DNA of 64,000 nucleotides, taken from IMG/VR virus record IMGVR_UViG_3300008261_000075, positions 1-64,000 of that record; one strand, 5' to 3'. The position numbers and the translations under genes were made by a program. How positions within the stretch are numbered: position 1 is the first letter of the stretch; every line of letters begins with the position of its first letter. Under the pieces are notes generated by a model, which was not told where the DNA came from, searched no databases, and was given only the letters and a program-made list of their open reading frames with translations. This DNA is from a virus. Taxonomy: Duplodnaviria; Caudoviricetes. Shown piece by piece: positions 1-48,177 of the stretch.

Positions 1-784
1 GTTGATTTCTAGACATTTCATAAATGATAGCCGCTAACGCAACATCACCAACTCTACTCAACATCTGCACCAATCGTTGAGCGGCAGCATTTCCTTTTAG
101 TCCTGCGAGACGCCCAAGCCAGTTTTTAAATTTATCAACTTGCTTGGCAACAAGTCCAGTAGCGCCACCTACGAGTTTGACAGTTCCCCCCAACGCAATA
201 GCCGCAATAACTTTTGAAGAATAAATCATTCTAGCAGATCCGATAGCTTGATTGGCATCTGCCAAAGCCTTTTCTTTATCAGCGTCGCTGACAGTACTGT
301 CTTCTAAAGTTTTAACAAGGTTTTTTCGTATATTCTGTTCTGTTGCTACGTAATCGTCCCATATATCATCTAAACTCCATGCAACAACAGAGATTGATCC
401 CCACTTTGCTATAACGTCTAATGCTGAAAAGAATTTTTTAGCTTTATCTTTTACAGCTTCTTTAACAGCGGCAGCACCTGCTTTGATATCTCGTATAAGT
501 CCTGCTCGCTCAGCTTGTCTAAAAGCCTTGACTGCTTCTTTATAGGCAGCATTCATAACTTCACGATCGGCAGCTAAAACAGGATCTCTAATCACGTTGA
601 TAGGCATGGATACTCTAATGTTACCTGCTTCTAACATCTTAGCAGACCATGCTTCCGCTAACTGTCTAGCAGCCTGATTCTTAGCACTGTTACCTAGAGA
701 CCATGCTACACCTCTAAGAATTTTGTTAAGAAACCCTACAGCTTCACTAGAGGGTGCTTCATTAATAATATCAAATACTTTCAT
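1..784 (-). CDS. Late-expressed protein, probably an internal virion protein (3' end beyond window)
   Basis: Not in the ORF track. Hand translation from ATG at 784 is open to the window edge (MKVFDIINEAPSSEAVGFLNKILRG...). Preceded by ATAAATA at 805-811. Ala-rich helical composition with hydrophobic stretches. Confidence 0.8.
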   Translation of the reverse strand, partial: MKVFDIINEAPSSEAVGFLNKILRGVAWSLGNSAKNQAARQLAEAWSAKMLEAGNIRVSMPINVIRDPVLAADREVMNAAYKEAVKAFRQAERAGLIRDIKAGAAAVKEAVKDKAKKFFSALDVIAKWGSISVVAWSLDDIWDDYVATEQNIRKNLVKTLEDSTVSDADKEKALADANQAIGSARMIYSSKVIAAIALGGTVKLVGGATGLVAKQVDKFKNWLGRLAGLKGNAAAQRLVQMLSRVGDVALAAIIYEMSRNQ

Positions 785-804
785 ACCTGTTCCAATATAT
801 AGAG

Positions 805-811
805 TATTTAT
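805..811 (-). promoter_or_regulatory. T4-type late promoter (ATAAATA)
   Basis: TAAATA core about 20 nt upstream of the ATG at 784. The same motif precedes other late genes, and a gp55 sigma is encoded in the window. Confidence 0.7.
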
Positions 812-814
812 TAA

Positions 815-894
815 AGAAGAACTACGTTCTTCTGTGTTTATCGCTTGCGCTCAAACACATTTCACATTTCATTTATATTAACTGCGAAGCAGTT
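815..894. repeat. Cluster of three short inverted repeats with GNA/GNNA loops
   Basis: AGAAGAAC-TAC-GTTCTTCT (815-833), TGTGTTT...AAACACA enclosing GC-TTGC-GC (833-859), AACTGC-GAA-GCAGTT (880-894). Confidence 0.75.
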
Positions 895-899
895 TAAAT

Positions 900-1265
900 A
901 TTATCTAGATTGTTCAGTCACACTTAGCCCTTGCGGGCTAAAGTTTGGACATTATCTGAGTTGAACATGTCACTTAGCGTTAACACTACAAGTATTGCTA
1001 CTAGCTTAGGCGGTCATCCTGTACCTAATCGTGCTGTCTTTTGACGGCGGTGTGCAAATATACGCTAACATACGGGCACACGTAGGGTATTTCTCCCTTC
1101 TTTTAGCCTTTTAAATTCTTTTTAAACAGCAAAACCAGTTGTGTATAGGCATATCTGATCACGTCCTGTAAAGGATAGTTGCTGAGTACTCTTAACGGCG
1201 AGAGATTTCCTTACCCCGAGACATCACCGAGGATTTGGGCGCACGAAATTGGCCTGCGCTGAGCG
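900..1265 (-). ncRNA. Candidate large structured non-coding RNA
   Basis: No ORF >=60 aa. About 10 helices found by eye on the minus strand, two GCAA tetraloops, G-U pairs that favour the minus strand, and three loop-to-distal complementarities (pseudoknots). Confidence 0.6.
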
Positions 1266-1706
1266 TTAACCGTTTAGTTGTCGGCCTTTGATGTGTGAAC
1301 CGTGTACACGAACCTGTATGTGACCGTTGTAGTAGTCGTCACTTTCCAGTACTCGTCGTGTGAATTGTTCACGAGCCTCTATGTATGAGCATTCAGCCTT
1401 GCTGGTACAGTAGTATAATATTTCTCTTGTGAAATTATCTGCGCCTAGATCTTGTACGTCTTTGTTTAATTGGTCGTTTGAGCCATAGTATTCCGGCCAG
1501 TCAGAATCAATTTTAGATCGAATCCTCTTTTTCTTCTTGTTGCCGTTTTTAAGTTTTACTGTTTTATATGTGGTTTTACTAAACTTTGCTAGTTTCTTGC
1601 CTATATATTTGCGACCAGTGATGTTATTAGTGATGCAGTAGACGAATCCAATATACTCTTCAGATATAGTTTCGACTATTGTGTTTTGATAATACCATGA
1701 CATCAA
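1266..1706 (-). CDS. GIY-YIG endonuclease, T4 endonuclease II (DenA)-like
   Basis: GFVYCITNNITGRKYIGKK, YYGS, FTREIL, E and YYN motifs; single compact domain of 146 aa. Confidence 0.85.
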   Translation of the reverse strand: MMSWYYQNTIVETISEEYIGFVYCITNNITGRKYIGKKLAKFSKTTYKTVKLKNGNKKKKRIRSKIDSDWPEYYGSNDQLNKDVQDLGADNFTREILYYCTSKAECSYIEAREQFTRRVLESDDYYNGHIQVRVHGSHIKGRQLNG

Positions 1707-1979
1707 CTAGTTAGTGTCTTTGGAGCCTGCCTTGTGTTGTTTTTGAATACGCCTACGTGCCTTTTCTTCTGCCATTTCTATATTTCTAAGCCTACGCCAG
1801 TCCATGATCACTGCTCGACGCTGATCACATAGTTTTTTAATTTCAAGTAGCCAGTGTCTGGTGTCCATACCGGCTCTTTTGGTCCCCTCATTCAACCAAC
1901 GTTGATTAGCTTCAAAGTACTGCCTAAATGCTGTGAGCAATTCTGCATGTATCTCTTCGTCCTTGGGGAGCATACTCAC
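1707..1979 (-). CDS. Small basic helical protein (Hc1-like F..G.K.AG..R pattern)
   Basis: ORF abutting both neighbours; NEGTKRAGMDTR pattern. Confidence 0.6.
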   Translation of the reverse strand: MSMLPKDEEIHAELLTAFRQYFEANQRWLNEGTKRAGMDTRHWLLEIKKLCDQRRAVIMDWRRLRNIEMAEEKARRRIQKQHKAGSKDTN

Positions 1980-3754
1980 TCAGTAATCTCCAAGTCGTTA
2001 GCATAGCTGGTAAAGCCATTTTCTTTAATAACTTTGAGTACATTGCTGACACGCCCAATCAATTCATCTTTGTGACTGATTAGATAGATATTCTTTCGTC
2101 TTTCACGGCCCATCTTCTTAAGCACAGCCAGTGCGTTTTCAACACCTGACGCATCAAGCCCGTTATCAATCAGCTCGTCAATAAACAACAAGTTGATCTG
2201 CTGATACAAACTTTCCCACACATCACGGAATGCCCACGACAATCCTAAGATTAAGCGATTCCTTTCTCCCCGTGACAGGTTATCAAAGTCTAGATCCTGC
2301 CCCAGCTGTGTGATCTCAACAGTGAGATCGTTTTGGAATGACACAGTGTGCGGCAAGCCCATCTTGTCCAGATAGTAGGTAAGTCTGTTGTTGAGATACG
2401 CCAAGTTCTGATCAATGATCTTCTTGCGGATAAAACTATCCTTACTGGTCAGCAACTTGAGCAAAAATTCTTGATGATCTTTAACGCTGGTTAGTTCGTT
2501 TACATTGTCCCATGACACTTCTTGTAGCGCAGTTGCAGTCAGCTCATCAATTTGTTCTTGATAGGGATCTGTTTCCCCAGCTTTGATAGTCAGCTGTGTT
2601 TCCAACGTGTTTAAATTATTCTGATGCTTGAGTGCTTCTTCCACAGTGTCATAGTAGGTATTGGGTTTGACCAATTCAGTGTCTACACCTATCTCATCTG
2701 TGATCTTTTTAAGGTCTGCGGCCACTTTGTCTGCGTACTTTTGTGCTTCTGCCAAGTGCTTGGTCGCAGTTGCTGACATTTCTTCATGCTTGTGATCATG
2801 TAGATCTTGTTCGCAAGCGTGACATTTCTTACCGTCTAAGGCGGCAAGCTCGCTCGCGTATTTTTTTACGCTTCGCTCCGCTTGCGCTGTCGCGCTTTCT
2901 AGCGTTGCTCGTTCTTTGTTTAGACTTTTGATACGAGCAGAGTGTTCTAAATATTGTTTAAGTTGAGTATGTGCTTCAAGTTCCGTAGCAATATCTACAT
3001 TCTCAAGTTCAATAATAGCCCTGCCAATCTTTTCTAACTCTGTATCATGCTGATTATTCCATGCACGTTGTTTAGAACTTAACGCATCAATACTTTGTTG
3101 GATCTTTTCGTTGGACTTTTTAGTAGCTTCGATGTTTGCAGACTCTTGCGTGATAGCATCTTTGGTAGTCTTAATCAATTCTCTTAGTTTTTCTGCTTTC
3201 TCACTGAGTAATGTAATACCTAACAGTTGTTCAATGATCACTCTTTGATCATTTGCTTTCATACTAAGGAAAGGTTCACTATAAGTGTTTAATGCTACAA
3301 GATGTTTAAACATCTCGTGACTCATACCTAGCAAATCATCTAGGTCTTTTTGCGTTTCGCGCATGTCACCTTGACTATTATCTTCTGATTCGTCTGACTC
3401 TTGTTCTTCGTCGTTAACATAGAACTTTAGAATGTTAGGTTTACGTCCTCTCTCAATACGATAATTGATAGAATCTTTATCAAAAGACAAGGTGACCAAC
3501 ATGTTTTTATTGTTGATCTTGTTAATTAAGTTGTCTTTTTTAATATTAGTTAGAGCTTGACCGTATAGCGCATAGCTTAGTGCGTTGATAATTGTAGTTT
3601 TACCAGTGCCGTTACGGGCTCCGCTGTCATCACCGCCCATATCTAAGTTTTCACCTAGTACTAATGTTAACGTACCTTTGTCAAAGTCTACTGCTTGAGT
3701 TTGGTTACCCACACTCATAAAGTTTTTAACAGTTAAGTCTTTAATTTTTATCAT
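1976..3754 (-). CDS. gp46: Recombination endonuclease ATPase subunit (gp46, SbcC/Rad50-like)
   Basis: Walker A NGTGKTT, coiled coil with CHAC zinc hook, LSRGE signature, Walker B FIDE, ISH. Confidence 0.95.
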   Translation of the reverse strand: MIKIKDLTVKNFMSVGNQTQAVDFDKGTLTLVLGENLDMGGDDSGARNGTGKTTIINALSYALYGQALTNIKKDNLINKINNKNMLVTLSFDKDSINYRIERGRKPNILKFYVNDEEQESDESEDNSQGDMRETQKDLDDLLGMSHEMFKHLVALNTYSEPFLSMKANDQRVIIEQLLGITLLSEKAEKLRELIKTTKDAITQESANIEATKKSNEKIQQSIDALSSKQRAWNNQHDTELEKIGRAIIELENVDIATELEAHTQLKQYLEHSARIKSLNKERATLESATAQAERSVKKYASELAALDGKKCHACEQDLHDHKHEEMSATATKHLAEAQKYADKVAADLKKITDEIGVDTELVKPNTYYDTVEEALKHQNNLNTLETQLTIKAGETDPYQEQIDELTATALQEVSWDNVNELTSVKDHQEFLLKLLTSKDSFIRKKIIDQNLAYLNNRLTYYLDKMGLPHTVSFQNDLTVEITQLGQDLDFDNLSRGERNRLILGLSWAFRDVWESLYQQINLLFIDELIDNGLDASGVENALAVLKKMGRERRKNIYLISHKDELIGRVSNVLKVIKENGFTSYANDLEITE

Positions 3755-3764
3755 GTAATGTAGT

Positions 3765-4778
3765 TTATAGACCGCTATAAATTTCTAATAGTTTATTTTT
3801 GTCAAACGTATCGCTTTCAATATTGATAATCTGATTGGACACAATTTGATCAACTGACTCGAACGCTTGAATATCAATATTAGTATTGATTTCAGCTTCT
3901 TTCTTTTCAGCAATCAGCGTAAGTTCACGGATATCGTAGTCAGAAATAAACTTTTCTTTAATAAAACTTGCTTCTTCGTAACTAATGTCAATGTCTAGTG
4001 TAACACGTAAGTGTTGCTTGGGCAATATCAATGTGTCCGCTTCGTCGATCAATTGACTTAACTTGACTGTACGGAATGTAGGTTGACTAGGCCAGCTGTA
4101 ATATTGAGGCTTTCCGTCCCATTCTAGTATCATCATTCCACGTTCATCATCCCAAGCATCTGCATAGTTGTGTGGAAAAGCATTACCAATATAGATCATA
4201 TTAGACTTTTGTTGTCGTTTATGAAAGTGCCCGCTAAACCCTAGCTCGTAAGATTTAAAATTTTCTAAATTAATTTCACCGTGATCGGGCATCTGTACCA
4301 TAGCGTTCATAAAGAAGTTAGGCAATTCAAAATGACCAAAAATATATTTGCCACCCTTTTTGCCTACAGTTTTCCATTCTTCCCCAACAAGCCAGGGGCA
4401 GAGTGTAACGTCTCCAATAGTAGTAGGCTCATGTACCACAGTGATACCAGGAATATACTTTCCAAACTCCACAGAGTGAATGTCTCGTTTGTCCTTGTAA
4501 TACAAATCATGATTACCAGGAAAGAAGTAGAACTGATCAAACGCCTGCCCCAACTTTTCCAAGGCCCTGAGGCTATAATCCATTGTAGTAATATTAAGGC
4601 TATTACGGTTATGGTGCCAATCACCCATAAAGATACCTGTATCACACCCTTCCTCCTTTGCTTTGGCAATATACCAGTCTACAAAATCTTCACAGTCTTG
4701 GTTATGTGTAGAACTATTTGATTTTAATCCAAAGTGAATGTCCGTAAAACAGGCAACTTTCTTAAACAAATTACTCAT
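3765..4778 (-). CDS. gp47: Recombination endonuclease nuclease subunit (gp47, SbcD/Mre11-like)
   Basis: Metallophosphoesterase motifs DIHFG, GDWHH, GNHD, GHFH. Start moved to MSNLFKK at 4778. Confidence 0.95.
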   Translation of the reverse strand: MSNLFKKVACFTDIHFGLKSNSSTHNQDCEDFVDWYIAKAKEEGCDTGIFMGDWHHNRNSLNITTMDYSLRALEKLGQAFDQFYFFPGNHDLYYKDKRDIHSVEFGKYIPGITVVHEPTTIGDVTLCPWLVGEEWKTVGKKGGKYIFGHFELPNFFMNAMVQMPDHGEINLENFKSYELGFSGHFHKRQQKSNMIYIGNAFPHNYADAWDDERGMMILEWDGKPQYYSWPSQPTFRTVKLSQLIDEADTLILPKQHLRVTLDIDISYEEASFIKEKFISDYDIRELTLIAEKKEAEINTNIDIQAFESVDQIVSNQIINIESDTFDKNKLLEIYSGL

Positions 4779-5607
4779 CAGTTGATCCTTCATAGCGTTT
4801 AACAGCCGCCGCATGTTCACCAGCACCTGTTCTGCTGTAGCTTGGATTCATGCCGTTCATTTCTAGTATGTCATCACGGATGTTTTGATTGCGCTTTTCA
4901 ATATTAATGACCCTAACAAAACTATTAGTAACCGCGGCAGTAAAATAAGCAAATGGGTTATCTGATTTACTCTCATCAAACTGTAGACCAATCTGTGTAA
5001 GTTGTAAGATTGCCTGACCACGCATTTCATCATTGTAGGTATATCCACGAACGTTACCTCTAGTAGCATATCTTTCGCACAGTTTGATCATCATACGGGC
5101 CAGCGTAGGAGTAATACATCCTGCGTCTTTATCAAACGTACCTGTTTCTAAATCACCCTTCCAATGACTTTTACCTACACAGACTAACTCGTCTTTGTCA
5201 TTAAACTTCCAGTGTTGGAATGGTGGAAAATTTACTTTGTCATGACGATCTGCTGTGCTCTTTGGGTTACGTTTTCTAATTCCGTTAACTGGCACATGTT
5301 CGTAAGTCATAATACGAAATACTACATCGGTTTTTACTATCTTCTTATAATCAACTTCGCAGTCTGCTTGTTTAACTTTTTCACCTGCGCTTTTTCTTGC
5401 TTGATATGCTTGTTCGCCCTGTCGTTTAGCACGATTACGTTTAGCTTCTGCTATAGTACGGATATTAACTTTGTCAACATTAGGAAGAATAAGGTCATAT
5501 TGATGGTATTCAGGGCTGGTAAAACTACAATATGATGTCTTGCTTCTATGTATTTCTAACAACATATCCTTGTTGTTTAGATAGTTAACTTTGGGGGTTG
5601 GTGTCAT
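4771..5607 (-). CDS. gp55: Late-transcription sigma factor (gp55-like)
   Basis: NYLNNKDML N-terminus, YTYNDEM...FDESKSDNPFAYFT; adjacent to gp47/gp46 as in T4-like phages. Confidence 0.9.
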   Translation of the reverse strand: MTPTPKVNYLNNKDMLLEIHRSKTSYCSFTSPEYHQYDLILPNVDKVNIRTIAEAKRNRAKRQGEQAYQARKSAGEKVKQADCEVDYKKIVKTDVVFRIMTYEHVPVNGIRKRNPKSTADRHDKVNFPPFQHWKFNDKDELVCVGKSHWKGDLETGTFDKDAGCITPTLARMMIKLCERYATRGNVRGYTYNDEMRGQAILQLTQIGLQFDESKSDNPFAYFTAAVTNSFVRVINIEKRNQNIRDDILEMNGMNPSYSRTGAGEHAAAVKRYEGSTDE

Positions 5608-22983: not shown

Positions 22984-25900
22984 ATTCAGGTTTAATTTTT
23001 AGTTATGAAAAACCAGCACACACATTAGCATGGACTCAAATTCAAACCGAAGAAGATAAACCAGACATCTCTAAGATTAAGAAAGCGTTTTTATACAATA
23101 AGAGAACAAACAAGCTAATAACTTACCTAGACATTATTGATCCAATCCAAGGCAAAGTTCCAGGAATTGCAGAACAAGAAATCAAGTTTAAAACTTATTA
23201 TGACCCTGCAACATACACTGTTGGTACAAGTGCTGTAAAAGTTGATGACGGACAGGCATGGACAACTACTAAAGTTGGCATGCTATGGTGGGATTTAACT
23301 CGTGCTAAATTTATTGACAGCTACGGCGGCGATGTAGTGTATCGTAACACCACATGGAATACATTGTTTGATACTGCAAGTATTGACATATACGAATGGG
23401 TAGAGACTAGTTTAAAACCTGCAGAGTGGGATAAAAGAGCTGATACCGAAGCTGGATTGTCATCAAATATCAGTGGCACAAGTCTATATGGCAATTCAGT
23501 TTATAGTGTTAAGAAACGATATGATAACGTTTCTAAAACTTTTAAAGAAACATATTACTTTTGGGTAAAGAATAAAAAAACAATACCTAACGTACAAGAC
23601 AGACGGATGAGTGCTTCTGACGTTTCCGGATTGATTTCTAATCCAAAAGGCCAAGGATACAAATACCTTGCGCTAACAGGATTAAATTCATTTAGCTTGG
23701 TTAATGTTAAGCCATTGCTACAAGACACTGATGTTGTGTTGTCTGTACAATATTGGACCATTGACAAGACTGATCAAAATATCCATAGCGAGTGGCGCCT
23801 AATAAGCTCAGACGAAAATACAGCACTTCCTGCTAGCATTGAAGAAAAGTGGTTTGACAGTTTGTGTGGCAAAGATCAAAATAATCGCGTAGTACCTGAT
23901 TTAAATCTTCCACCTAAATTACGATACGGCGCAGAATTCCGCCCACGTCAAAGTTTGTTTGTTAATCGCTTTGAAGCTCTAAAACAATTTGTTGAACGTG
24001 CAAATAGTGTCATGTTAACTAATCAAATTGTTGAGACTCGTGACATTTTAGCATTAAGCAGTTATGACCCACAACCAAGCATTATCACAGCGTTATACGA
24101 CGAAGTGTTTGATACTGATGCAGAATTAAGATTTGCCAGTGTTAGTACGTTTAAAGCACCTTCTTTATTACCTATAATTCAAGACGGTTCTATAGTTGGG
24201 GTAGAAATTATTGAAGCTGGTAACGGATATGTAACTGCGCCCTATATAACAGTTAAGGGTAACGGACATAGTGCAGAATTACAAGCATTAATTAATAGTC
24301 GAGGTCAAGTTGTTGGCGTAAAAATTATTGAAGAAGGTAAAGGTTATGACAGCGCAACTGTTTTGGAATTAAGAAACTATTCTGTTTTAATTCGTAGTGA
24401 TAGTCAAGCACTCAACAGGTGGAGCATATATGCATACACTCCAAACTCTAGAACATGGTCTAGAACTCAAAGTCAAGCATATGATACTCGCCGCTATTGG
24501 AACTATGCTGACTGGTATGCTGCCGATGTTAACCAATTTACATTAGCAGATTTTTCAGTTGAAACAATTAGTGATATTAATAATCTAACAGTTAAGATTG
24601 GTCAATATGTTAAAGTTAGAACTACTGGCTCAGGCGGCTGGGACTTGTTACAAAAATACGCTGATAGTATTAGTATTGACTGGACACAGAGTTATAAAGT
24701 AGTAGGTAGTCAAAACGGAACAATTCAATTAAGTAGTGAACTTTATAAATTTTCAGACACTACTTTGGGATTTGATGGTGCGTTATTTGATGGTGACACT
24801 TTTGACAACACCGCAGTTATTGAATTAAGAATTATTCTTGAGACTTTAAAGAATAAAATCTTTATTGACACTTTAAAACAAACTTACTTAGATTTATTCT
24901 TTGTATGCTTACGTTATGCATTGTCTGAACAGACGTATTTAGATTGGGCATTTAAAACTAGCTTTGTTAGAGCTCAACATAATGTTGGACCTTTAAAACA
25001 AAAAGTTACATTTAATAACGATAACCTTGCAGATTTTGAAGCATACATTGCAGAAGTAAAACCATACAGAACTCAAATTAGAGAGTATGTTAGTGAATAC
25101 ACTGCAATAGATCAAACTGAAACTTCAGTAACTGACTTTGATATACTTCCTGTTTATAGAGAAGGAAAAACACTTCCAGTTGCAGTAGCCAACGTTAACG
25201 GTGACATTCAATCGTTAGAACCGGCTATTTTAACTTATCCTTGGAAGTACTGGCTAGATAATGTTGGATTTGAAATTTTATCTATTAAAATTGTTGACCA
25301 AGGTAGTGGATACATTACTGAACCCGTGGTTAGAATTATTGATCCAGATACACAAAGTACCTCAACCGCCGCCACAGCTAGAGCATTTATTTCTAACGGT
25401 AAGTTATCTAGAATAGTATTACTAACATCCGGCAAAGGCTATCTAACAACTCCAACTATAGTGATTGACGGCGGCCTTGATATTGACGGGACTCCAGCAA
25501 GGGCAATTGCAATTATTGGCAATAGTGTTGTTCGTAGTAATCTTATCAAAATGAAATTTGATAGAACTAGTAGAACATATTTTATTACAGAATTAGAAGA
25601 GTCGGCAGCATTTACTGGCACAGGCAATCAATTACAGTTTGCACTAAAATGGGCTCCAGATATTAGAATTGGAAAAAGTTTAGTAAAAGTTGACGGAGTA
25701 GAAGTGTTGAGAGCCAACTATAAATTAGCCGTCAACAAATCCACAGTTAGGGGATACACTAGTTATTATGGAACATTGACATTTGAAACTCCACCGGCCA
25801 AGGCAGCAGTTATCACTATTGATTATATTAAAGATTGGTCGCTACTAAGCGCCGCAGATAGAATTCAATACTACTACGATCCAAAAACCGGCCAACTTGG

Positions 25901-45524: not shown

Positions 45525-46141
45525 GCACATGCTTTGGCAATTTCTTGATGTTCTAGTTGAGTACCGTTAGCTGATCGAAGTTCTATGTAGTGTACCCAAC
45601 TACGTAAAGTTCCATTCATATATAAACGACTTTCTGTAAGACCTTCTGGTAAAACAGCACGAGCCTGTTCCTTGGCAATACCTCTTTCAATTGCCTCAGA
45701 GTATGCTGAACTAGCCTGTTCAATAATCCATTTTTGTTTAGCATCCCACCATGCTTGCAGTTCTGTGTCATTTGTGGAAATACTGTTTTGCCTATTTTTT
45801 GTATCTTGTAGCCTAGCCTCTCGAATTACAAAATTTAAATCTTTAGTAGGATCAGCGTAGCGTTGACTAAACTCTTGAAATGCAAAGCTTCGATGTCGCA
45901 GAATTTGCCTTGCAATATCTCTAGTAGTAGTAATTTCAATACAGGCGCTGACCATTTCTAATGGTGACCAATGTTGATGTTTAATTAGATATTTGATAAG
46001 TTTTTCACTAGTTTCTGTATTAAATTGATTGCTAGGATTACTTACTCTTGCACAATATGCAATAAGTTCTTGAGCATCAGCGATGCCCAAATTCTTAAAC
46101 TCTTGTGTGGGTTGACTGTAGGATAGGAGGTTAACTTTCAT
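45473..46141 (-). CDS. thyX: Flavin-dependent thymidylate synthase
   Basis: HWSPLE, RQILRHRSFAFQEFSQRY ThyX motif, EQARAVLP. Confidence 0.95.
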   Translation of the reverse strand: MKVNLLSYSQPTQEFKNLGIADAQELIAYCARVSNPSNQFNTETSEKLIKYLIKHQHWSPLEMVSACIEITTTRDIARQILRHRSFAFQEFSQRYADPTKDLNFVIREARLQDTKNRQNSISTNDTELQAWWDAKQKWIIEQASSAYSEAIERGIAKEQARAVLPEGLTESRLYMNGTLRSWVHYIELRSANGTQLEHQEIAKACAQVISTVFPMANDLVSN

Positions 46142-47629: not shown

Positions 47630-48177
47630 TATTTTTTACCTATTGTCATGTATCTAGTATAGGAATCCATGCATTTACTACCTGTAAAAAATGTTTCAGC
47701 TAGCGGAAATTTTTGTTCTAATTCTTCTATACTTGATACTATGTTTATGTGATCTGAGTGTTGAAGATTGTTAGATTGAAATAGACACAGAGTACCATTA
47801 GGTATCCGATCATACCATGCGGTACCTTTTACGTGTTCAGTTACTGTATTAATTACGCAGTTAACGGACACTGGGTAATCTATTGTATTAATATCTTGTG
47901 GATATGCTCTAAATGCCCAGTCTTGTAATTCCCAAGTGTTGTTAATTGCATTAGCAACTGAACAGGCACTGGGATCAAGATCAAAAGATCGACACGAATT
48001 TATTTTAATATTATTTCTAACTTTGAGGATAAAGTGTAATAGGGAATACCAACCGCCTAAGACATATATGTCCAAGGGGTCGGTAATGTGTTCCTTTACA
48101 CACCATTCTAGTTTTTCAGCGGCCCATAGTTTGCTATTAACTTGACCACTACTAAATGCATCAAACTCTAGATTCAT
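47629..48177 (-). CDS. SAM-dependent methyltransferase-like protein
   Basis: YVLGGWYS (motif I), SFDLDP, VINTVTEH, FQSNN. Start moved to ATG 48177. Confidence 0.65.
   Translation of the reverse strand: MNLEFDAFSSGQVNSKLWAAEKLEWCVKEHITDPLDIYVLGGWYSLLHFILKVRNNIKINSCRSFDLDPSACSVANAINNTWELQDWAFRAYPQDINTIDYPVSVNCVINTVTEHVKGTAWYDRIPNGTLCLFQSNNLQHSDHINIVSSIEELEQKFPLAETFFTGSKCMDSYTRYMTIGKK

Follow-up and report, generated by a model that had tools for sequence, protein, structure and literature searches.

A conserved structured RNA of ~460 nt is encoded on the minus strand of the window, the name used here for positions 1 to 64,000 of the 109-kb IMG/VR virus record IMGVR_UViG_3300008261_000075 (Caudoviricetes); the first third of this RNA is the catalogued motif Polynucleobacter-1 (RF01718). 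The RNA is a large fold under strong selection that stands at the end of an early/middle-type operon of DNA metabolism genes, and it is independent of the gene that comes next. A preliminary description of the window, made from its letters, had proposed, for the minus strand between positions 900 and 1265, an ornate phage RNA with multiple pseudoknots, comparable in kind to other large RNAs of unknown function, and had regarded its site as the largest non-coding gap of the window. Both of these views are borne out, since positions 785..1265 (481 nt) form the largest gap free of open reading frames (ORFs), the next being of 306, 296, and 281 nt (47630-47935, 22984-23279, and 45861-46141; no Rfam family at the gathering score in a scan of the window), and structured RNA does occupy the proposed interval. 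Its boundaries had to be moved, conservation and pairing reaching from ~1274 to 815.

The 5′ third, which the preliminary description could not assign to a family, is a member of RF01718: 1264..1124 score 81.1 bits (E 1.2e-15), where the gathering score is 37, over all 141 positions of the model (1-141), only one pair in this full-length alignment is marked as non-standard, and the RF01718 helices P1, P2, P3, P4, and P6 carry compensatory changes. This is the sole Rfam match in the window and a single copy in the 109-kb record, and the remaining ~310 nt, the 3′ two-thirds, match no Rfam family even at E up to 10 (searched over 700..1400). The motif is not found here as a stand-alone cis-regulatory 5′ element of ~141 nt, it is part of a conserved unit of ~460 nt; the cis-regulatory role is an interpretation in the catalogue rather than a defining sequence feature, so the membership stands. 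RF01718 is unlikely to be a 5′ leader in this setting, where the downstream gene is dispensable and has a promoter-like motif of its own.

The RNA strand has ~10 stops per frame, and the longest antisense ORFs opposite the RNA in the window are of 39 and 37 aa. Antisense ORFs of 88-95 aa are open on the plus strand in six relatives (L112, L048, L128, L132, L136, and L125) and are probably chance frames; as coding sequences they were rejected, being absent from the window and inconstant in position among relatives.

Relatives were collected from IMG/VR by pattern scans, one with a degenerate pattern of the 5′ domain, which gave 116 stretches, and others with a pattern of the 3′ part, which gave at least 119 stretches with an N6 spacer and 23 with an N7 spacer, the latter including a divergent subgroup. 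In blastn comparisons the similarity of ~70% extends across nearly the whole gap, beyond the Rfam part, and an nhmmer profile built from 82 sequences finds the element in 243 of 249 loci, all of them IMG/VR viral contigs. It is near full length in 184 loci, cut by a contig end in 16, divergent in its 5′ part in 18 (which still keep P1-P3 and the pseudoknot PK0 with their sequences swapped), divergent at its 3′ end in 23, and of another kind in 2. The 187 unique sequences share a mean pairwise nucleotide identity of 66%. A blastn search of 50,697 GenBank phage records with 700..1400 gave no match, and scanning 185,579 prokaryote genomes by pattern turned up 21 stretches, none of them true (nhmmer best 15 bits over ~40 positions), a result that leaves absence from these genomes unproven, as the Polynucleobacter copy of 2010 was not recovered by it. 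All copies recovered in this analysis sit on viral contigs, many of them of uncultured jumbo phages from fresh water.

The fold is carried by covariation. Mutual information with average-product correction over the 187 unique sequences ranks at its top pairs of the Watson-Crick type (1034/983, 1257/1241, 830/818, and 1043/1015), and the covarying pairs stack into helices. The strongest pair of the RNA, 1034/983 in P11, occurs as GC in 74 sequences, CG in 65, UA in 22, and AU in 18. The resulting model, which comprises 23 helices, five of them pseudoknots (PK0-PK4), was scored on A2, a MAFFT alignment of 26 sequences mutually less than 74% identical, with counts that are phylogeny-unaware. The window sequence itself is misaligned in A2, and the register of P2, P11, P12, and P17 was therefore set on the columns of a typical row. 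With the model, 88.0% of the cells are paired, against 38-41% with the partners slid by 1-3 columns, the former value being somewhat favored by a register fixed on A2 itself and the compensatory counts less so; with an earlier register of the same four helices it was 80.4%. Compensatory changes on both sides occur in 76 of the 119 pairs of the model, the double-change cells number 384 against 66-83 when slid, and none of 500 shuffles matched the observed value on any measure. The RNA strand is fixed because the frequent G-U pairs fit the minus strand only, as at columns 144/181, where GU is found in 24 of the 26 sequences. The single-sequence fold (z = -2.0) is weak evidence by itself.

The best-supported helices are P9, PK1, P18, P11, PK2, P1, and P7, and those weakly supported in A2 are PK3, P14, and P15 (coordinates and pairing in the table below). 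Much of the pairing listed in the preliminary description recurs in this model. Its stems GCGCA/UGCGC, CCUCGG/UCGGGG, AGGG/CCCU, and UUAGG/CCUAA, as well as CAGCAA/UUGCUG enclosing UCCU/AGGA and GAUCAG/CUGGUU, all have both pairing and covariation on their side, UGUGC/GCACA proved to belong to a 12-bp hairpin (P9), and its 7-bp pseudoknot UUAGCGU/ACGCUAA (PK1) is among the firmest elements of the fold, with a covariation sum of 2.16 over the 187 sequences. Three of its hairpins, GACAU/AUGUC (P14), UUAGCCC/GGGCUAA (P15), and AGUA-GCAA-UACU (P13), have weaker support, the last lying in a variable insertion, and the pseudoknot GUUCA/UGAAC (PK3) is plausible on weak evidence. The pairing of GCCU with AGGC had to be given up, since it is Watson-Crick in only 45-75% over the 187 sequences.

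PK0 was added at the 5′ end. Its 5′ strand lies outside the Rfam model and overlaps the last codons of the upstream ORF, and its support is mixed. Over the 187 sequences 1273/1195 is AU in 109 and GC in 11, 1270/1198 is GC in 150 and CG in 26, and 1271/1197 is GC in 154 and AU in 17, and in one subgroup the strands are fully swapped (CUGCC with GGCAG or GGUAG); in A2, where the flank is poorly aligned, PK0 is only 65% paired.

Table. Positions of the RNA, its helices, and the neighboring genes in the window (5′ strand / 3′ strand for helices).
Feature	Position	Strand	Remarks
Whole conserved structured RNA, ~460 nt	815..1274	minus	from the conservation profile of 82 sequences, nhmmer, and covariation
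5′ domain, RF01718 Polynucleobacter-1	1124..1264	minus	Rfam covariance model
PK0	1274-1269 / 1199-1194	minus	5′ flank AACGGU with P3 loop GCCGUU
P1	1259-1255 / 1243-1239	minus	
P2	1232-1227 / 1219-1214	minus	
P3	1204-1201 / 1192-1189	minus	
P4	1184-1179 / 1132-1127	minus	
P5	1175-1172 / 1167-1164	minus	
P6	1160-1155 / 1138-1133	minus	
P8	1108-1106 / 1048-1046	minus	closes three-way junction 1046..1108 around P7 and P9; conserved, zero compensatory change
P7 hairpin	1098-1095 / 1087-1084	minus	4/4 pairs changed on both sides
P9, 12-bp hairpin	1081-1070 / 1061-1050	minus	94.9% paired; 11/12 pairs changed on both sides
PK1	1068-1062 / 980-974	minus	P9 loop UUAGCGU with ACGCUAA; in A2 98.4% paired, 6/7 pairs changed on both sides
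PK2	1045-1041 / 1017-1013	minus	with P12 loop; 95.2% paired
P11	1034-1031 / 986-983	minus	encloses P12; 98.1% paired
P12	1028-1024 / 1010-1006	minus	96.1% paired
P13	1002-999 / 994-991	minus	in variable insertion 1002-991, absent from 23/26 aligned relatives
P14	971-967 / 952-948	minus	70.6% paired in A2; one-sided changes only; loop may pair in PK3 and PK4
PK3	966-962 / 916-912	minus	80.8% paired; few compensatory cells
PK4	957-954 / 910-907	minus	99% paired; no compensatory change
P15 hairpin	941-935 / 930-924	minus	72% paired in A2
P16	893-889 / 885-881	minus	4/5 pairs changed on both sides
P17 outer	858-853 / 839-834	minus	5/5 pairs changed on both sides
P17 inner	850-849 / 844-843	minus	P17 as a whole has tandem G-A and a GNRA loop
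P18 terminal hairpin	833-826 / 822-815	minus	97.1% paired; 5/8 pairs changed on both sides
Direct repeats RGAURAU	957-951 and 906-900	minus	
Palindrome AUCUAGAU, 8 nt	910-903	minus	unpaired stretch
Late-promoter-like motif AAUAAAUA	805..812	minus	belongs to downstream gene, outside RNA
gp47-like phosphoesterase	4826..3765	minus	
gp46-like ATPase	3754..1976	minus	
90-aa ORF	1979..1707	minus	no Pfam match
GIY-YIG nuclease, stand-alone, 146 aa	1266..1706	minus	directly upstream of RNA
ORF-free stretch, 481 nt	1265..785	minus	minus-strand gene order
Downstream gene	2..784	minus	truncated at contig end

The two RGAURAU repeats co-vary over the 187 sequences, position 957 with 906 (AA 101, GG 79) and another position as AA in 173 and GG in 9, with few discordant cases, and the second repeat lies within the palindrome AUCUAGAU or its variant AUCUGGAU in 173 of the 187. 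Either a shared partner or a dimer interface would be consistent with co-varying repeats together with a palindrome.

A sister class of this RNA sits at the same place, past the GIY-YIG gene, in ten loci (L283, L286 at 1945-2400, L296, L301, L302, L306, L332, L334, L339, and L350). Its 3′ half is homologous over P11-P18 and retains PK2, P12, the P14 loop, P15, the UCUAGAU stretch, P17, and P18, while its first ~200 nt form a different conserved domain, without an RF01718 hit in the five members scanned. Since the sister class keeps the 3′ half and swaps the 5′ domain, the core with the wider distribution is the 3′ part, and the Rfam motif amounts to a single 5′ module.

The gene directly upstream encodes a protein of the GIY-YIG nuclease superfamily in 230 of the 231 loci that have an upstream ORF. 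In the window this protein matches Pfam PF19835 SegE_GIY-YIG (E 9e-32) and phrog_447 (E 2.5e-36), and its relatives are 141-150 aa long with 71% mean identity (167 unique sequences). Residues invariant in 53 sequences include Y23, Y34, G36, R94, E110, and N127, which probably hold the catalytic roles. The AF2 model (pLDDT 90.7) consists of a GIY-YIG core with a long basic beta-hairpin (residues 41-67), that is, a lone catalytic domain without a DNA-binding domain, and its top fold matches are all GIY-YIG domains, namely the I-TevI catalytic domain (Z 8.3), PD-T4-3 (7.3), the UvrC N-domain (5.5), and T4 EndoII (2wsh; 5.5). A sequence search of the PDB gave nothing below E 0.2 and no EndoII match, and Foldseek against the PDB gave no match at E ≤ 0.001, with I-TevI appearing only at probability 0.9. 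A small GIY-YIG nuclease gene thus does precede the RNA, as the preliminary description had it, and the label "denA-like" used there applies only loosely.

The RNA begins where this gene ends. In 166 of 179 unique sequences the stop codon falls somewhere between 18 nt ahead of the first PK0 base and 14 nt past it, and in 69 of the 179 it is within a conserved GGUUAA beside PK0. The 200 nt upstream show codon-periodic conservation only, with ATAAATA in 0 of 180, and a search of 600..2100 for sigma-70-like sites came up empty. All relatives preserve the order gp47 - gp46 - (variable inserts) - 90-aa - GIY-YIG - RNA. Loci were also sought with the protein as seed. Among the best 80 of these, with GIY-YIG at 59-90% identity, 56 have the RNA, 14 match its 3′ half only, and 10 have no hit, three of the ten (L280, L320, and L358) being cut less than ~150 nt from the gene and so not judgeable. 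In two loci (L346 and L335), which give the highest RF01718 scores of all (110 bits), a methyltransferase-like ORF of ~270 aa (L346:1930-2740) lies between the GIY-YIG gene and the RNA, which starts less than 20 nt from the end of that ORF. In four others (L329, L333, L341, and L359) the GIY-YIG gene, 65-72% identical, is followed directly by what appears to be another ORF, and there is no RNA within 1.5 kb. These exceptions mean that the RNA is tied to the end of the operon and not strictly to the nuclease gene. Two loci (L325:2080-2340 and L304:1925-2095) share a different conserved non-coding element past the GIY-YIG gene, unrelated to the RNA by nhmmer, and another (L326) has a barely recognizable relative of the RNA.

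Most sequences continue after P18 directly with (U)AUAAAUA, a ribosome-binding site, and ATG. In 154 of 186 scored sequences a co-oriented gene, its conserved N-terminus being of the type MK(V/I)x(E/D)II, begins 35-75 nt after P18, and TAAATA is present within 45 nt past P18 in 139 of these 154 against 8 of the 32 without such a gene. We take the ATAAATA motif to resemble the late-promoter consensus of T4. In the 64-kb window it occurs only 6 times, 5 of them at most 60 nt upstream of an ORF of at least 80 aa, a distribution that fits a T4-type late promoter in this phage. At ~21 loci what comes after the RNA is a convergent gene encoding a T4 baseplate-protein domain, and there is no co-oriented gene. 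The downstream gene, which has no Pfam or PHROG match, is hypervariable (blastp clusters 10, 11, 12, 13, 15, 18, and 21 across the relatives), and in one relative (L003) its protein has 59% aa identity against ~94% identity of the RNA. A riboswitch or 5′ leader is characterized by a constant position in the 5′ untranslated region (UTR) of the gene it regulates and by an expression platform that touches the terminator or ribosome-binding site of that gene; these are not found, the promoter-like motif intervening. In the window P18 is followed by a weak U-run (UUUAAUAAAU), with the RNA-strand tail UUUAAUAA; where the downstream gene is absent the tail is not U-rich. A terminator scan reports the palindromic hairpin P18 on the plus strand only. 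Past the downstream gene come a convergent gene with a T4 baseplate domain and a protein of 1232 aa that has a chitinase or lysozyme-like domain.

Near-identical DNA is present in freshwater, lake-water, and crustacean metagenome runs from 16 studies, and six of the runs are RNA libraries. Assembled contigs from four RNA runs cover the region, although such contigs show neither ends nor strand nor level, and one of 402 nt (X17, freshwater metatranscriptome) spans 1083..1484 and thereby bridges the junction of ORF and RNA. Summed depth in X17 peaks over 801-1000, to which no weight is given, since depth taken from contigs does not rank genes.

We give about even chances to a reading in which the RNA is transcribed together with the operon, has P18 as its end, and works in trans as a folded molecule. 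The RNA would then be the 3′-terminal part of a gp47 - gp46 - 90-aa - GIY-YIG transcription unit, there being apparently neither room nor signal for a promoter of its own; the transcript would be processed and would end at the covarying P18 hairpin; and the folded RNA itself would be the functional product, as its conserved tertiary architecture suggests, acting in trans during infection as a scaffold, with a protein partner, or as a self-assembling particle. It would not be a leader of the following gene, because ATAAATA stands between P18 and that gene and tracks it, and because ~21 loci do without the gene. Several points weigh against this reading. The sole published entry, a line in Table 1 of PMC2864571, appears to class the motif as probably cis-regulatory. 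P18 does not look like a textbook intrinsic terminator, its U-run being weak or absent; read-through into the next gene, and hence some leader role, may occur; the argument for action in trans comes from architecture alone; and what the RNA libraries offer is assembled contigs only, for which DNA carry-over is possible. A bolder version of action in trans, which we consider rather unlikely, would make Polynucleobacter-1 one exchangeable 5′ module within a class, so far undescribed, of large modular RNAs that jumbo phages of fresh water carry and whose P11-P18 core, with its RGAURAU repeats and AUCUAGAU, would self-assemble or bind two copies of a partner and so serve as a trans-acting machine or scaffold.

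The alternatives explain parts of the same arrangement. That the RNA starts at the end of an ORF, that PK0 and the stop codon overlap in 69 of 179 sequences, that P18 is a stable terminal hairpin, and that an RNA-library contig joins ORF and RNA would all be expected of a cis-acting 3′ UTR element, which might protect the transcript end, stop transcription, or, through PK0, link the termination of GIY-YIG translation to folding. Yet ~460 nt with four to five pseudoknots far exceed what end protection or termination needs, the position of the stop relative to PK0 varies (-18 to +14), and in two loci the RNA follows a different ORF, so that we regard this explanation as unlikely. Slightly less probable again is a role in regulating the downstream late gene in cis, as its 5′ leader or in the manner of a riboswitch, as implied by the catalogue of 2010, in whose table the column with a "y" for Polynucleobacter-1 is presumably the cis-regulatory one. 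That mark (Table 1, PMC2864571) and the co-oriented gene with its conserved N-terminus, 35-75 nt past P18 in 154 of 186 sequences, are what it would account for; it leaves aside the ATAAATA that intervenes between RNA and gene and vanishes along with the gene, the ~21 loci that retain the RNA without a co-oriented gene, and a hypervariable protein next to a conserved RNA.

The remaining two explanations are both improbable. The RNA could be a partner or guide of the adjacent GIY-YIG protein, in a layout recalling omega-RNA beside TnpB: the gene is nearly always directly upstream, its product consists of the catalytic domain alone and bears a long basic beta-hairpin, and insertions, found at other junctions of the operon, are rare at the junction of GIY-YIG gene and RNA. 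We nonetheless hold this to be very unlikely, given the gene inserted between the two in L346 and L335, the four loci with the GIY-YIG gene and no RNA within 1.5 kb, and the lack of an identified variable, guide-like segment. Homologues of the protein also occur in 251 GenBank phage records, mostly of cyanophages, and RF01718 gave 0 hits beside them in the flanks of Melnitz-3, Variovorax phage V45v66, C48C1, and ACP17, three of which are annotated and have no non-coding gap big enough for the RNA. The size, the pseudoknots, and the invariant unpaired stretches are ribozyme-like, and with a GIY-YIG gene adjoining, a ribozyme that cleaves itself from the mRNA, or a degenerate self-splicing intron tied to a homing-type endonuclease, comes to mind. 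This is the least probable of the explanations considered here, since none of the ribozyme and intron families of Rfam gives a match in 700..1400, even with E allowed up to 10, there is no split exon context, and the gene order is syntenic and vertically kept rather than sporadic.

Several known systems resemble the RNA in part. Polynucleobacter-1 itself was catalogued in 2010, with the taxa given in Table 1 of PMC2864571 as "Burkholderiales, fresh water/estuary." The full match of 141 positions (81 bits) and the freshwater habitat agree with that entry. It differs in that its model covers the first third, with ~310 further conserved and covarying nt and PK0 outside it, and in that the copies found here are on viral contigs, in a context that speaks against a 5′ leader. 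GOLLD and ROOL are longer than this RNA and are often beside tRNAs; in the 64-kb window a tRNA/tmRNA scan found none. They are, like it, large, multi-pseudoknotted, and of unknown function, often occur in phages, and are described as forming RNA-only multimers (10.1101/2024.12.08.627333). The 8-nt palindrome in an unpaired stretch would suit self-association here, too, as far as its sequence goes. Neither the GOLLD nor the ROOL covariance model reaches its gathering score anywhere in the window, and in 700..1400 neither gives a hit even with E allowed up to 10.

In TnpB systems the omega-RNA is encoded at the end of the nuclease gene. As with the omega-RNAs of TnpB/IscB, the start of this RNA coincides with the 3′ end of a nuclease ORF or reaches into it; the differences are that the nuclease is of the GIY-YIG and not of the RuvC type, that there is no transposon context but a syntenic site, and that the pairing of gene and RNA can be broken. 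Group I introns with GIY-YIG genes, such as T4 td with I-TevI, likewise bring a gene of I-TevI-like fold beside a large pseudoknotted RNA. They differ in that no Rfam group I model matches here, the ORF precedes the RNA and is not in its loop, and no host gene is interrupted, the flanks being two separate complete genes. No description of the 460-nt unit, PK0-PK4, the phage context, or the sister class was found in the searchable literature, supplements not covered.

Large intricate RNAs of unknown function are rare and have repeatedly led to new biology; HEARO, for one, reportedly turned out to be a guide RNA. Here an orphan motif of 141 nt becomes the front end of a ~460-nt RNA present in more than 240 viral contigs, and its boundaries, its host assignment (phage), and its likely mode of action (not as a leader) are corrected. 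The diversity of the 187 unique sequences, at 66% identity, suffices for good modeling, a natural domain-swap variant is available for comparison, and the RNA is a well-defined target for cryo-EM and jumbo-phage biology.

The closest cultured relatives by gp46 are the jumbo phages PA5oct, Phosso, and Atu_ph07, at ~44-49% identity. In the whole genomes of these three and of Melnitz-3 and Variovorax phage V45v66, RF01718 was above the cut-off in 0 of 5. In Kyanoviridae phages the GIY-YIG homologue is located after the ribonucleotide reductase genes, as denA is in T4. In many relatives of the window (e.g., L054, L236, L112, and L123) there is a variable insertion site between the gp46-like and the 90-aa genes, where the extra ORFs belong to blastp clusters 14, 16, 17, 19, 34, and 35 and the rest of the operon is syntenic.

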